Source: Pyrinomonadaceae bacterium
GTDB taxonomy: Bacteria > Acidobacteriota > Blastocatellia > Pyrinomonadales > Pyrinomonadaceae
Assembly: GCA_035639235.1 (NCBI GenBank)
Contig: DASQYL010000229.1
Location: forward strand, 7 to 64,006
DNA length: 64,000 nt
Direction: 5' to 3'
The translations under genes and the position numbers were made by a program. Numbering within the stretch: position 1 is the first letter of the stretch; every line of letters begins with the position of its first letter. Positions 6,189 through 32,077 of the stretch are shown here, piece after piece. The notes beneath the pieces are model-generated. The model had not been told where the DNA came from. It was given only the letters and a program-made list of their open reading frames with translations, and made no database searches.

Positions 6189-6959
6189 CTATTTCACTCC
6201 TTCCCAATTACAACTCACCATCTTAGTAGCCTTGCAAGCATCTTCGCATCGGGCTTTGGTCAGCGTTCTTCCCAACGACACTTGTTTCTGCTGGTCATTG
6301 ACTCCCGAGCACGCGCGCGGCGGATGGGCGGAAGATTCGCGACAGATGATGCCTTGATCGACGTTCACCGTCGTCTTGCTCAAACGCCAACGCTGGTTGG
6401 GTGTGTCCTTGCATGTTTCCAAAAAAACCGCGGCGAAATTCCCGGTGCCTTTGCGGTAGATATCGAGGCAGCGATTCGATCCGACATCACGAATCTCGAG
6501 GTTCACACCGAACTGATTCAGCGACCATTTCTGACTGGCTTTGCCGGCGGCGCATTCGGTCTGCACCACCGCCGTGCGATCTACAATTTTGTCCGTCGCC
6601 ACTTCCAAACAAAGATCGCTGTGAACCGGCGAGATGGTGTAGTTACCCGAGCCGTCGCTGACGACATTAAATTTTTGATTGTTGCTGACTTCGCTCTTGT
6701 CACAGTCGAAGATCTGCAGAGGCGTCACGGCCGCGCACGAGTTGCTCGGAATTTCCAGGCAACGATGACTGGCTTCGCCCACGATTGTGTACATGCCATC
6801 GGCGACGTTGCCCGGAGCAACGAAGTTCTCATCCACGGCGCGAGTTGCATCAACACCCCGAGCGAAAGATGCGGTCGCATGAGAGTCGTGGGCCACATTA
6901 GTGATTAGAATCGCACTGAGCAATGACCCTGAAAACAAAATCATCGATGATAATTTCAT
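6189..6959 (-). CDS. secreted ricin-B-type (QxW) lectin-domain protein with Cys-rich C-terminal tail
   Basis: Signal peptide. Three QxW-like repeats (NQKF, SQKW, NQRW) with the conserved Cys pattern. The antisense ORF 6162..6908 has no such features. Confidence 0.7.
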   Translation of the reverse strand: MKLSSMILFSGSLLSAILITNVAHDSHATASFARGVDATRAVDENFVAPGNVADGMYTIVGEASHRCLEIPSNSCAAVTPLQIFDCDKSEVSNNQKFNVVSDGSGNYTISPVHSDLCLEVATDKIVDRTAVVQTECAAGKASQKWSLNQFGVNLEIRDVGSNRCLDIYRKGTGNFAAVFLETCKDTPNQRWRLSKTTVNVDQGIICRESSAHPPRACSGVNDQQKQVSLGRTLTKARCEDACKATKMVSCNWEGVK

Positions 6960-25337: not shown

Positions 25338-27395
<2,058 letters not shown>

Positions 27396-27396
27396 A

Positions 27397-28938
27397 ATGA
27401 TTTTTCGCGAACAATTCGAGAATCTCCGTCTCGGGCCTCTACGAGGTTTGAAACGATGCGATCTGTTGAAGCTCGGTCGAATCAACGTCCTATGCGGAAA
27501 GAACAACACCGGTAAATCGACGCTGCTAGAAGCGGCGTCCAATAAAGCAACGCGAGCTAACGGCCTAACGCCAAGCGATGATTTCGTTGCAGATCTAGTA
27601 AAAGCAAATAACGACCATTTGGATAGACAACACGGGCATTTTGCGCGTGGCCGTCATCTTCGACACTTACTGCCTGACTTATTTCGCGAAGTTATACAAG
27701 CTCGCATGGCTTGGTTCGCGGGGGAAGAGAAAGAATTAGTCGAACTAATAAACAAAAAAGTGGCGGGTCCCAATCACGCCGAACTCCGACAAGCTATTCA
27801 TTCCACAGCCATAGTTCAGGATCTTGAATCCAGTTTCACGTACCCGACCGTCGAAGCTATCTACATTCCTCCAATTCGTAGGATTGAGGTCTCAGGAAAG
27901 ATCGCTACGGCTGAAGAACCTCAGCCAGAGGGTAAAGGGGTCGTGAATCGTCTATTCCATCTACGCAACCAGCCTCCCGGTAGCGATGGATTGAAGCTGG
28001 CTGCGTCCATCGACAATTCTTTTAAAGAGATTACAGATGGCTTTAGGTTTGGAGTCTTCAGCGAAAAAGAGAATAATTATGCGCTCAAGTTTTCCACGGA
28101 TGAAAAGACTTGGATTCCAGCCGAACACTGCGGCAAAGGGCTGCAAGATCTACTTGTGATTCTCTATTTTGCTCTTTCGAAGACCCGCGGCCTTTTGCTA
28201 ATCGAAGAACCCGAAGTTCATTTGCACCCGGAAATGCAACGCCGTCTTCTGGCGCATCTTAGATCGAATACGGAATCGCAGTACATTTTCTCAACGCACT
28301 CAAATGTCTTCTTGGATGGGGCTTTGACGGACCGCGTGTTTCTGACGAGATTTGACGCAGAGGTTCTCGTGAGCGATGCAACGTCCAAGACGACGTTCTT
28401 GCACGATCTTGGGTATTCTCCAGTCGATAACCTTGTTTCAGATCTCATTATTCTCGTTGAAGGACCATCCGATGTTCCGGTGATCGAAGAGTTCTTAAAG
28501 AAGCGGGGTCTTTATGAGACGTACAGCATAAAGTTGTGGCCCCTTGGCGGCGATATAATGGCAAAAGCTGAAATCGACCTGACCGTTTTTGCACAGTCCC
28601 ATCATGTTTTGGCTCTAGTCGATGGCGATCCTGGAAGTGGCAAAGTGCGCAAGAGATTTCAAACGAAATGTTCTGACCTAAACATTGAATGCGCACGCCT
28701 AAAACGCTACTCGATTGAAAACTACTTCTCGCTTCGCGCGCTGCGCCAGGTTTTTGGTTCTCAAATTCCAGATGCGATTACGGAGATTCTTGGAAATGAA
28801 AAGCTTGAGAGTCAGATCGGTATCAACGTGAAGTCCAACAACCGTTCTATAGCGCGAGAAATGAACTTGGAAGAAATCGCAGGCACAGACTTGGGTAAGT
28901 TTTTCGACCGAGTCGAACAAGTGCTGCGAGGTGTTTGA
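27397..28938 (+). CDS. OLD-family / PARIS-like nuclease: ABC-type ATPase fused to a TOPRIM domain
   Basis: Walker A GKNNTGKST. Walker B LLLIEEPEVHLHP. H-loop FSTHS. TOPRIM E (LIILVEGPSD) and DxD (LVDGDPG). RYSIENYF. ATG lies 1 nt after the thiC TAA. 60-nt samples give 43-47% GC against 57% in thiC. Confidence 0.8.
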   Translation: MIFREQFENLRLGPLRGLKRCDLLKLGRINVLCGKNNTGKSTLLEAASNKATRANGLTPSDDFVADLVKANNDHLDRQHGHFARGRHLRHLLPDLFREVIQARMAWFAGEEKELVELINKKVAGPNHAELRQAIHSTAIVQDLESSFTYPTVEAIYIPPIRRIEVSGKIATAEEPQPEGKGVVNRLFHLRNQPPGSDGLKLAASIDNSFKEITDGFRFGVFSEKENNYALKFSTDEKTWIPAEHCGKGLQDLLVILYFALSKTRGLLLIEEPEVHLHPEMQRRLLAHLRSNTESQYIFSTHSNVFLDGALTDRVFLTRFDAEVLVSDATSKTTFLHDLGYSPVDNLVSDLIILVEGPSDVPVIEEFLKKRGLYETYSIKLWPLGGDIMAKAEIDLTVFAQSHHVLALVDGDPGSGKVRKRFQTKCSDLNIECARLKRYSIENYFSLRALRQVFGSQIPDAITEILGNEKLESQIGINVKSNNRSIAREMNLEEIAGTDLGKFFDRVEQVLRGV

Positions 28939-28990
28939 GTTCATCTGAAGGACAGAATGTAAGCAAGGCAATCCGTGAAACGGACGGATG

Positions 28991-29086
28991 AATCTGTCGC
29001 CCGCTAAAGCGGGCTTTTGATTTGTGGTGGGCTTGGTTTCCCAGCACTGAAGTGCTGGGCTATTTTCAAGCGTCCGCTACGCGGAC
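28991..29086 (+). repeat. ~96-nt three-hairpin direct repeat, copy A
   Basis: aatctgtcgcccgctaaagcgggc..cccagcactgaagtgctggg..gtccgctacgcggac. The first hairpin plus tttt may also terminate the OLD gene. Copy B is at 30691..30786. Confidence 0.85.
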
Positions 29087-29131
29087 GAAATCAGCTTGTC
29101 AGGGGACATCGGCCGAGCGTAATTTTTCCCC

Positions 29132-29443: not shown

Positions 29444-29680
29444 ATCAAACAGATTCGTTGCCCAGCGAACGTTTTTGGAGTGCGCCGGCTTGACGACGCT
29501 TTTTCATTTCTGCGAGCCAATAATTCGAAGCTCTGAAGGCGCGAGATAAATCGCGATATGCCAATCATGCGTTTTCGTTTCCCACGACTGAAGGGGTGGG
29601 GGTATTATCTCCGCCTGTCGGATAGGCTATCTTTGCGTGTCAACCGGAGCCTTATCAACATCATTCTGGAAGGAGCTGAA

Positions 29681-30511
29681 ATGATTCCACTAGAAGAGCC
29701 GATTTTTATCGACGTCGATAATGTCGTTTTTGTAGATCAGGTCGGTAACAACTTTTTGTTTCGCGGGCCGCTTCCGTTGACTCCCACCTCTGATCCGAAG
29801 CAGCCTTTTCTCTTTAATTACGATGGCCTCAGAGGAGGAATGGAGAACGCGCTTCGCAACACCGGCCACGAACTGCCGTGGCCATACCGTCTGATCGACA
29901 TCAATCTGTGTCAATGGGAAAACGTTAGTAACATTCCATGGATCGAGACGGAATATAACTACTTTCAAGATCATCCGGATGCAGGAGAGTTCCAGTTTTG
30001 GGAAACAAACGGAACCGGACTCTGTCCCCTGTCACCGCCGCTCAATGATCCGGAGGTGCAGACCTATCTCGCCACGAACCTGTGGTATTGGCTCACTGAT
30101 AGACTTGCTGACTCGCCGCCTGGCGTGTACCCCCCGGGAAGAATGGACCAATTGCGCGAGTGGCTTGCGACTGATACCGATCCGCCCACAGTAATCTACG
30201 CCCACTGCCAAGGCGGAATTGATCGCACCGGCGAACTGATCGGCGCTTACTATCTGCGCTGGATGGGAAAGACGTGGGCCGAGATGAACTGTCTGAACTA
30301 CCAGATTACCGAACCTAATCCGCGACCCTTTGGTTGTAACAACTACCGCGCGACTCTTTGGTACGCCATCTATTTAAACGTGGTCCATGGCTTCGATCTC
30401 AATTACAACGAAGCCTTTCCCTGCGCGGATCCGGGTGGGCCGGCGTACAAGTGCGGAGAGGCATCGTCGAATCCCGACCCCGATAATCCATGGACGTTTT
30501 GCGTAGGTTAG
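29681..30511 (+). CDS. Cys-based (CX5R) protein-tyrosine/dual-specificity phosphatase-like protein
   Basis: Active-site loop HCQGGIDRTG. GGAG RBS 6 nt before ATG 29681. No signal peptide. Cys-rich C-terminus. Confidence 0.7.
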   Translation: MIPLEEPIFIDVDNVVFVDQVGNNFLFRGPLPLTPTSDPKQPFLFNYDGLRGGMENALRNTGHELPWPYRLIDINLCQWENVSNIPWIETEYNYFQDHPDAGEFQFWETNGTGLCPLSPPLNDPEVQTYLATNLWYWLTDRLADSPPGVYPPGRMDQLREWLATDTDPPTVIYAHCQGGIDRTGELIGAYYLRWMGKTWAEMNCLNYQITEPNPRPFGCNNYRATLWYAIYLNVVHGFDLNYNEAFPCADPGGPAYKCGEASSNPDPDNPWTFCVG

Positions 30512-30690
30512 GACCACTATCGTCGCGACGTGAATTTAGCCCGACGTTTCAACGCCGGGATCACGCGGGATCAATCGAACCTTGTCGCATCAGCGACAAA
30601 TGAATCTCTCGCGACGAACAATTCATTCGCCCTTTCTTTCCGGCCTTGAAAGGCCGGGCTAGATTCAATCGTCGCTTCGCGACGACAATC

Positions 30691-30786
30691 AATCTGTCGC
30701 CCACTAAAGCGGGCTCTTGTTTTGTGGGGGCTTGGTTCCCAGCACTGAAGTCCTGGGCTAAATTAAGCGTCCGCTGCGAAGCGGAT
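30691..30786 (+). repeat. ~96-nt three-hairpin direct repeat, copy B
   Basis: Aligns with 28991..29086 over its full length with a few substitutions and a 1-nt indel. Confidence 0.85.
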
Positions 30787-30913
30787 GGGTGCGCTACGCC
30801 TGTTCAGCGGACTAGTCCCGAGGCATCGGAGAACGGGGGCTAAGAAAAAACGCGATTTCGAGCCAAAATCCTCGTATTTCCTCAAGAATTTGACTGATTT
30901 GGCTTTCGAAAAC

Positions 30914-31186
30914 CTGCATTTCCAATCGATCCAAATGCATTTTCCCTTGATGGAAATACACCGCAAGTCGATGGAAATTCATTTCTAATTGATGGGAATG
31001 CATTTGGAATTAATCTGAATGCAGTCGGAATTGATAGAAATGCATTCTGAATTGATTGGAATGCAGCGCGAATCGGTTCGGATGCACTTCTAATCGATCC
31101 GAATGCAGCCCGAATCGATCAAAACGCATTCAGAGTTATTCAAACTCCAGTCCGAATTGACCAGTGTCGATTCTGCGCGGTTCAAC
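30914..31186 (+). repeat. tandem array of 13 exactly phased 21-bp units (weaker periodicity back to about 30848)
   Basis: Unit starts fall at 30914 + 21n with no indels. Consensus is ATGCAttcnGAATCGATnnA. See the findings. Confidence 0.9.
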
Positions 31187-31267
31187 TCCACACCGCCCGC
31201 TCGCGCTCCGGCCGGTGGACAGATCGTTGATTTGCTTCATTCGTCGCACACATGTAACGTAAACTTC

Positions 31268-32077
31268 ATGTCTGAAAATCACGCCGCCTTTGTTGGATCG
31301 ATTCCGGAGAATTACGATCGCTATTTGGGCCCGCCGATGTGCCGGCCGAACGCAGAAGATTTAGCTGCGCGTTTGCGCGTAGCACCAAACGCGTCAGTGT
31401 TGGAACTCGCTTGTGGCACCGGCATCCTGACGCGATGTTTGCGCGATCGGCTGCCGGCCGAGGCGAAGTTGACCGCGACCGATCTGAACCAGGACATGAT
31501 CAATTATGCGATCGCGAAATTTGGTTCAGGATCGGTTGAATGGAAGCAGGCTGATGCCACTGAATTGCCTCTCGCGGACGAATCGTTCGACGCAATCGTG
31601 TCTCAGTTCGGCGTAATGTTCGTTCCCGACAAAGCCCATGCGTTTGCCGAAGCGCATCGCGTGCTCAAGCGCGGCGGACAATTGCTTTTCAATGTTTGGG
31701 ACTCGCTGGAGTACAACGATTTCGCTCGCACGGGCCGTGAAGTCGTCAACGGTTTCTTTGAGGACGACCCGCCGACGTTCTACAACGTGCCATTCTCTTC
31801 GTATGAGCGCGAGCCAATGCGGGAACTGCTGGCCGGCGCTGGGTTCACCGACATTCAAGTTGCAACCGTTCCAAAGGATGCGACGGCGCCGTCCGCCGCA
31901 GAGTTGGCGATTGGTCTGGTGGAAGGCAATCCAATCATCACCGCGATTAAAGAGCGGATGCCGGAAAAAATTCCCGCCATCAGGACGGCTGTCACTCGCG
32001 CGCTGGTCGATCGATTCGGAGACGCGCCGGTGCGGGCAAAGATGCAGGCAATAGTCTGGTCAGCGCGAAAGAATTAA
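31268..32077 (+). CDS. class I SAM-dependent methyltransferase
   Basis: Motif I VLELACGTGILT and post-I TDLNQDM. The tracked ORF start at 31103 lies inside the repeat array, so ATG 31268 is preferred. Confidence 0.8.
   Translation: MSENHAAFVGSIPENYDRYLGPPMCRPNAEDLAARLRVAPNASVLELACGTGILTRCLRDRLPAEAKLTATDLNQDMINYAIAKFGSGSVEWKQADATELPLADESFDAIVSQFGVMFVPDKAHAFAEAHRVLKRGGQLLFNVWDSLEYNDFARTGREVVNGFFEDDPPTFYNVPFSSYEREPMRELLAGAGFTDIQVATVPKDATAPSAAELAIGLVEGNPIITAIKERMPEKIPAIRTAVTRALVDRFGDAPVRAKMQAIVWSARKN

Follow-up and report, generated by a model that had tools for sequence, protein, structure and literature searches.

A 21-bp tandem array upstream of a methyltransferase gene in an uncultured Pyrinomonadaceae: probably a non-coding minisatellite of the variable-number type

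Here, we describe a tandem array of 21-bp units in a 64,000-nucleotide stretch of DNA from a Pyrinomonadaceae bacterium (Acidobacteriota; contig DASQYL010000229.1 of assembly GCA_035639235.1), hereafter called the window. The genes of the locus run in the order ddl, acetyltransferase, gpmI, thiC, an accessory islet (27.36-31.27 kb), methyltransferase, aspartyl protease, hydrolase and PEP mutase, and this flanking gene order, with the housekeeping genes ddl, gpmI and thiC, identifies the setting as chromosomal. The genes neighbouring the array all lie on the + strand. The array sits at the 3' edge of the islet, between a stop codon at 30511 and the methyltransferase ATG at 31268, 100 bp upstream of the latter, and its G+C content of 39-41% (genome ~55%) agrees with an earlier note, made from the letters of the DNA, that had placed it in an AT-richer accessory islet. 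We propose, with a probability of about 65%, that it is a non-coding intergenic minisatellite of the variable-number tandem repeat (VNTR) type on the chromosome of an uncultured member of the Pyrinomonadaceae.

The core of the array consists of twelve 21-nt units arranged head-to-tail on the + strand (30914-31165). Their exact, indel-free register, starting at 30914 as the earlier note had it, is evident both in a register printout and in the autocorrelation of the array, which is 0.57, 0.56 and 0.53 at lags of 21, 42 and 63 (~0.15-0.3 at neighbouring lags). In a scan of the 64 kb, the top lag-21 value for a 252-nt segment (0.65, with a window mean of 0.27 and a standard deviation of 0.04) belongs to this array, and the periodicity has a z of 14 against shuffles of the array itself. 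Neither the lag-21 scan nor a scan with a weight matrix found a second such array in the window.

The consensus of the units is ATGCATTTCGAATTGATCGAA, in which C4, A5 and T13 are invariant and two boxes stand out, ATGCA at positions 1-5 and AATyGAT at positions 11-17. The twelve core units agree with the consensus at 12-17 of the 21 positions and with one another at a mean of 61%; they are old and diverged. On the 5' side, three decayed units on the + strand (30851-30913; common nnnnATTTCnnnnnAAAnnnn) retain 8-9 consensus matches each, and on the 3' side one decayed unit (31166-31186, +) retains 9, such decay at both edges being usual for tandem arrays. The count of "13 or more units" in the earlier note thus holds for twelve solid units, the one at 31166 being the weak thirteenth, and its degenerate periodicity back to about 30848 is seen in the lag-21 autocorrelation (still 0.58 for the 252 nt from 30850) but scarcely in the match of those three units to the consensus. 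Tandem Repeats Finder reports 30987-31120 only.

The centres of the two cores alternate at spacings of 11 and 10 bp, one helical turn, a geometry that had been described correctly. The description of both cores as palindromic went too far: no more than 3 of the 12 units contain an exact ATGCAT, and 3 an exact ATCGAT, and dyad symmetry does not extend past the inner 2-5 bp, outside which the units show no compensatory changes. A hairpin or cruciform maintained by such changes was ruled out by this comparison of dyads across units. A weight matrix derived from the units matches every one of them, on the + strand only, which together with the limited dyads makes the array a directional direct repeat with two boxes and not a string of palindromes. 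The two halves of the unit are related, sharing GAATnnAT, and the conservation profile recurs at a lag of 10. Conservation is also strongly unequal between the columns of the unit (P = 0.0004), and AA steps recur every 10.5 bp with a power of 2.22 (99th percentile 0.48), the strongest such signal of the whole window.

The array varies between strains. One ENA contig (L120) matches the window without a difference for 21 kb. A sister strain (L156, JGI 3300039655) keeps the gene order and shows 99.8-100% identity to the window across ~20 kb, differing from it by two deletions, one of 84 bp in the array and one of 189 bp in a phosphatase-like open reading frame (ORF) of the islet. The 84-bp segment (31032-31115, +), defined by BLAST of L120 against L156 and by the register printout, comprises exactly four units, leaving the sister strain with 8 units in place of 12; those that remain are identical to the window's. 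Its junction is a hybrid unit in which ATGCAGTCGGAAT is joined to CGATCAAA, with the breakpoint in the shared GAAT and placeable up to ~4 nt further left. Since the four units found in the window only include no copy of any unit kept in L156, the 8-unit allele arose when old units were deleted, and no recent duplication underlies the 12-unit one. The loss ran through these few bases of shared sequence (GAAT). Collapse during assembly is an unlikely cause of the difference, because the units have no long identical stretches. The second deletion is in frame (window 30106-30292) and removes the CX5R motif of the phosphatase-like ORF, which suggests that the whole islet is under relaxed constraint in L156.

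At two more distant loci, L121 (79% protein identity) and L122 (71%), the methyltransferase orthologue is present with no array upstream. The intergenic DNA of L121 (1830-1990) holds, at the equivalent position, two ~75-bp direct repeats that each end in TGTAAATCCTGT, with the inverted complement ACAGGATTTACA upstream; these constitute a different repeat element. The earlier note had held that absence or variation of the array, with no associated binding protein, would reduce it to a minisatellite, and what we found is an array that is absent at two orthologous loci, varies by four units and has no associated binding protein.

As the earlier note had recognised, the gene downstream encodes a methyltransferase. 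It is a class I S-adenosylmethionine-dependent enzyme (31268-32077, +; 269 amino acids; UbiE/BioC-like by Pfam and NCBIfam), predicted from its sequence to be a small-molecule enzyme and no DNA methylase. NCBI record HYX28804.1 is the identical protein, also of 269 amino acids. The ENA and JGI gene callers instead draw 324 amino acids, adding an in-frame "extension" of 55 codons (31103-31267, +) from the ATG of the tenth unit. Almost all of the best 120 homologues are ~269 amino acids long and cover 81-83% of the 324-residue ORF. Hence the extension is an annotation artefact, one that the ATG in each repeat unit offers to gene callers, and it is probably not translated.

With a 21-bp unit equal to seven codons and a codon phase shared with the ATG at 31268, the array had raised the alternative of a decayed heptad-repeat coding sequence, which would be a pseudogene or a stretch that once extended the methyltransferase at its N terminus. 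The phase is as described, as are the in-phase stops TAA at 30986, TGA at 31016 and TAA at 31091. The claim that every other frame is interrupted too needs one correction: stops occur in five of the six frames across the array, and the sixth, on the minus strand, is open and has no start codon. The +2 frame is nearly open (a single stop), but third codon positions are the most conserved there. Mismatches between units fall on the three codon phases as 19/21/27 (P = 0.62), that is, with no 3-nt periodicity, and no frame of the array has a Pfam match. When the open minus-strand frame was compared by HMMER with 1.84 billion representative proteins, 15 hits were obtained at E <= 0.001, most of them short ORFs of similar heptad repeats, and the three inspected had been called on DNA arrays of the same sort. 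Three further hits are very large repeat proteins (21-26% identity); leaving those unexamined three aside, none was clearly a homologue with a domain that could be recognised. The array is non-coding.

The same consensus occurs elsewhere. One of the spurious ORFs (P0129/P0136) led us to three short ENA contigs from other soil metagenomes (L151, L152 and L153), which carry identical arrays of at least 12 units with the consensus ATGCATTTCCAATTGCTCGAA, identical to that of the window at 19 of 21 positions, and whose flanks are unrelated to the window's. In L152, 92 nt separate the stop codon of an ORF from the start of the array. (Pectinesterase for the gene flanking this array and metallothionein for a Cys-rich ORF were guesses that Pfam did not confirm, and neither is relied on.) No unit-by-unit correspondence exists between the window array and that of L152, while their per-column mismatch profiles correlate with r = 0.57. 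Because one reading frame served as the query in finding these arrays, the family is probably under-sampled.

A metagenome scan with a two-unit pattern returned mostly unrelated, near-perfect coding heptad repeats (e.g. DAGQMGQ, in phage-like contigs), and among its matches only two, L130 and L134, resembled the window array. These are two loci of one soil metagenome (JGI Ga0190275; 62-63% G+C) with degenerate 21-bp arrays ATGCAATCGAAATCGATGGCC at 1-226 and 2714-2905, respectively, seen to the locus end inside the array. One follows a DUF2914 gene and the other a polyprenyl synthetase gene, with 30-63 nt between the stop codon and the start of the array, and AAATCGAT hardly varies in either. 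Since the search pattern itself dictated part of their resemblance to the window array, it does not establish homology. The conserved box thus varies from array to array, being TGCA in L152 and AAATCGAT in L130 and L134. Mismatches in L130 and L134 together fall on the codon phases as 22/23/25 and so hold no codon signal, and L152 likewise has none.

Two further arrays share the period, the degeneracy and a GGAAA..TTTCC-like box, and are treated as lookalikes and not as members of the same family. One, with the unit CAAkrTTGGGAAAnCATTTCC, lies at 64-400 of the reverse complement of a 748-bp contig (L154; ENA ERZ27249731), where units of CAATATTGGGAAAnCATTTCC and CAAGGTTGGnAAnCGnCTnAC alternate; a pair of short G+C-rich hairpins (GGCGGAAACCCGCC and CCGGAAAGCCGG) stands before it, a layout that recalls the hairpins followed by an array in the window. 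The other comprises ~16 degenerate units ATAAGGAAAnnGTTTCCTGAT at 6300-6660 of a 442-kb contig (L155; JGI 3300064041), ~300 bp upstream of a divergent operon of a 180-residue ORF, DndB, a D12 DNA methylase and DUF4357; like the window array, it adjoins defence-type genes. Over the arrays of L151 to L155 lie short ORFs, for which the gene tables record no Pfam hit and which are at most putative genes. A contig scan with ATGCA-N5-AATYGAT-N3-AATGCA gave at least 119 single chance matches and, among the matches listed, no locus with three or more; scans of viral contigs gave unrelated 21-bp repeats or nothing, and a protein search with the ORF over the L130 array gave no match. In the literature, we found no description of such arrays.

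The islet upstream opens with a stand-alone AAA_15/AAA_21 ATPase (27358-28938, +), whose listed ORF, with 27358 as its first position, runs over the end of thiC (27395). In PADLOC it scores best against NsnB, AriA and GajA and also matches the ATPase-Toprim_I-B and Old profiles, and its C-terminal part reads like a Toprim domain; by sequence, it is predicted to be an OLD/GajA-like ATPase-Toprim protein and not a ParA. No partner defence gene was recognised for it. There follow an Unstab_antitox fragment and the phosphatase-like ORF of 317 amino acids (29558-30511, +), which has no match in Pfam, NCBIfam or PADLOC and contains the motif HCQGGIDRTGE, which we take to be the CX5R signature of protein-tyrosine and dual-specificity phosphatases. 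Between this ORF and the array lies a cluster of short G+C-rich hairpins (30520-30850) with three Rfam matches to Acido-Lenti-1 (RF01687), at 30528-30559 (-), 30639-30684 (+) and 30738-30770 (+), only the second of which reaches the gathering score. A further copy lies at 29040-29087 in intergenic DNA of the islet, where Acido-Lenti-1 behaves like a dispersed REP-type element rather than a single small RNA gene. A direct repeat of ~100 nt (28988-29090 and 30688-30790; ~85%, range 80-88%, identical) brackets the antitoxin fragment and the phosphatase-like ORF as a cassette.

Gene checks around the array covered the ORFs of 25.3-35.5 kb and the called genes of 21.1-42.1 kb. As the earlier note had stated for the immediate neighbourhood, no Rep, Par (ParA, ParM, ParB, ParR) or regulator gene is near: none of these, and no integrase or other DNA-binding gene, occurs in the islet or within ~10 kb on each side. 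A scan for consensus promoters from 30400 to 31400 found nothing, nor was a terminator-like site seen on the + strand. Near 36-37 kb, the cumulative GC skew of the window passes through its lowest value and climbs beyond it; neither a dnaA gene nor a cluster of DnaA boxes was seen in that part, and the minimum may reflect nothing more than gene orientation.

In light of these findings, what might the array be? It is best described as belonging to a new and so far uncharacterised family of intergenic minisatellites in soil bacteria that have not been cultured, with a 21-bp unit of two boxes in helical phase. This is based on the array being real and non-coding, being absent at two orthologous loci, differing between strains by whole units, and recurring at unrelated loci. 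A minisatellite has units of 10-100 bp, head-to-tail, in non-coding DNA, all of which apply here, and the whole-unit change in copy number that distinguishes a VNTR is present in the single comparison of the window with L156. Among known systems, the mycobacterial MIRU loci are intergenic VNTR minisatellites with units of 40-100 bp. The array resembles them in its intergenic head-to-tail repeats, in whole-unit differences between strains (12 vs 8 here) and in belonging to a family found at unrelated loci; it differs in its shorter unit of 21 bp, which is diverged (61%) yet keeps two fixed boxes, and in having no small ORFs that couple the flanking genes.

The array changes in length by losing whole 21-bp units in register, as recombination or slippage takes place at a few shared bases. 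The two boxes (ATGCA and AATyGAT) one turn apart, along with the AA steps every 10.5 bp, may amount to a helically phased DNA surface that has been kept, most plausibly as intrinsically bent DNA or as side-by-side sites for a small dimeric protein encoded elsewhere. The gain or loss of whole units, each of two helical turns, would preserve the phase of that surface relative to the methyltransferase promoter region. Any function of the array would have to tolerate 8 to 12 units and to be dispensable in relatives.

Several points weigh against the minisatellite proposal or its parts. The difference in copy number was seen once only, and the 64-kb window, the part of this genome that was searched, holds a single array of this exact family. 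The 189-bp deletion in L156 may be a sign that the islet as a whole is in decay, and the array would then be functionless. On the other hand, a neutral view leaves unexplained both the unequal conservation of columns, shared with an independent array, and the 10.5-bp phasing, although the correlated column profiles could stem from shared ancestral unit variants rather than selection. As for a bound or bent surface, no binding protein, promoter or transcript was identified, and conserved boxes that differ between arrays are a poor fit with a single protein needing both.

One option, which we consider unlikely though worth keeping in view, is that the array is a cooperative platform, that is, a long operator or upstream activating array controlling the methyltransferase operon, for a regulator or nucleoid-associated protein encoded elsewhere. 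The protein might bind as dimers on one face, e.g. dimers of the ribbon-helix-helix type or one head-to-tail response-regulator dimer per 21 bp. The unequal conservation of unit positions (P = 0.0004) keeps a generic binding array viable, and a cooperative binding function is possible, if at rather low odds. The boxes 10-11 bp apart, the GAATnnAT shared by the half-units, the strong AA periodicity, the consensus kept at 19 of 21 positions in an independent array, the position 100 bp upstream of the methyltransferase ATG, and the loss of units in whole 21-bp steps that keep the helical phase all fit such a platform. Against it stand the lack of a DNA-binding gene within ~10 kb on each side and of isolated strong sites elsewhere in the 64 kb (best outside score 13 bits, compared with 16-27 bits for the units), methyltransferase orthologues (L121, L122) that do without the array, and the arrays of L152, L130 and L134, which lie just 3' of genes and not in promoters. 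Furthermore, different boxes are conserved in different arrays, and four units were lost with no other change in the array and at no visible cost. None of the motifs of Fur/Zur, ArgR, IHF, FNR or H-NS fits the consensus, and a regulon motif with isolated sites elsewhere in the window was ruled out by the weight-matrix scan. Thus, of the earlier proposal of a cooperative binding array, the two boxes one turn apart and the unequal columns survive, and its iteron and centromere forms are unsupported.

In a broader and more doubtful version, helically phased, degenerate 21-bp arrays would make up a class, hitherto undescribed, of binding platforms on the chromosomes of soil bacteria, with a small protein cooperatively coating one face of the DNA. 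Each unit would combine a GRAAT-N3-4-ATTYC-like box with a second, AT-rich one, the members would include the window array, L152, L154 and L155, and the arrays would serve as nucleoid-anchoring, silencing or centromere-like elements whose number of units tunes the strength of the effect.

It is improbable that the array is instead a transcribed structural element of the REP/BIME kind in 3' untranslated or intercistronic RNA, whose many short self-complementary segments would fold and so make the upstream transcript more stable, end it, or tie up an RNA-binding protein. Its position directly after the REP-like Acido-Lenti-1 hairpins, the shared + orientation of all neighbouring genes, and the arrays of L152, L130 and L134 that begin 30-92 nt after a stop codon are consistent with this. 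The predicted RNA also folds better than shuffled sequence (z = -3.8), but the opposite strand folds equally well (z = -4.0). In addition, the dyads show no covariation, no Rfam family matches within the array at E <= 1, and the + strand has no terminator-like site. REP/BIME elements and Acido-Lenti-1 are, like the array, dispersed, intergenic and often at the 3' ends of genes; unlike them, its units form no hairpins and match neither RF01687 nor any other Rfam family.

We regard as very improbable the suggestion of the earlier note that the array is an iteron-like origin, an incompatibility site or a partition centromere; the last would be of the parC/sopC type, and any of these would be a relic of an integrated plasmid or phage. 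The AT-richer accessory islet would be a suitable setting, and 21-bp helically phased direct repeats resemble iterons of 17-22 bp, just as sub-repeats of 10-11 bp resemble ParR-bound centromeres. Iterons such as those of R6K (7 x 22 bp) and P1 incA (9 x 19 bp) are likewise directly repeated, each unit spanning about two turns of the helix and offering two contact boxes. The array has the tandem, phased repeats of an iteron origin, but it differs in its twelve units and has no linked rep gene, no DnaA boxes, no adjacent AT-rich unwinding element and no similarity to plasmids or phages: BLAST found no match to it in 72,556 plasmids or 50,697 phages, and the nearest DnaA-like 9-mer (one mismatch) is at 29652, in numbers not above chance and with no DnaA-box cluster. 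Among ParR-bound centromeres, R1 parC has 10 x 11 bp and pSK41 parC has 4 x 20 bp, each of two 10-bp halves. The likeness extends to contiguous direct repeats, a sub-period of 10-11 bp, sites on one side of the helix and a 20-21-bp unit of two halves. The window array differs in being chromosomal, absent from relatives and variable in length, and it has neither parA or parM nor parB or parR beside it, with no Rep or integrase gene in the islet or within 10 kb. Moreover, its flanks are housekeeping genes in the same order in a second strain, and the same consensus stands just 3' of a gene at an unrelated locus.

Equally improbable is the coding relic, for which the open minus-strand frame, the plus-strand frame with a single stop and the ORFs that gene callers draw on such arrays may be cited, and against which stand variation with no 3-nt periodicity in the window, L130, L134 and L152, third codon positions that are the most conserved in the nearly open +2 frame, the absence of a Pfam match in any frame and of a clear homologue in the HMMER search, and methyltransferase homologues that start at the position of 31268 with no extension. 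PARCEL repeats offer a comparison, being tandem repeats whose DNA dyad symmetry likewise leaves several frames open on both strands, but their unit is 25 residues (75 nt), coding and detectable by profile, whereas that of the window is 21 nt with no coding signal.

Even if the array is only a minisatellite, it offers a strain-typing marker for an uncultured Pyrinomonadaceae lineage and a warning for annotation, as gene callers add 55 codons to the methyltransferase and place spurious heptad-repeat ORFs on arrays of this kind. To our knowledge, almost no cis-elements have been experimentally characterised in the Acidobacteriota. If the boxes are bound by protein, the natural 8- and 12-unit alleles would provide a ready dosage series, and the family would be a lead to a DNA-organising or regulatory system as yet unknown in this phylum.

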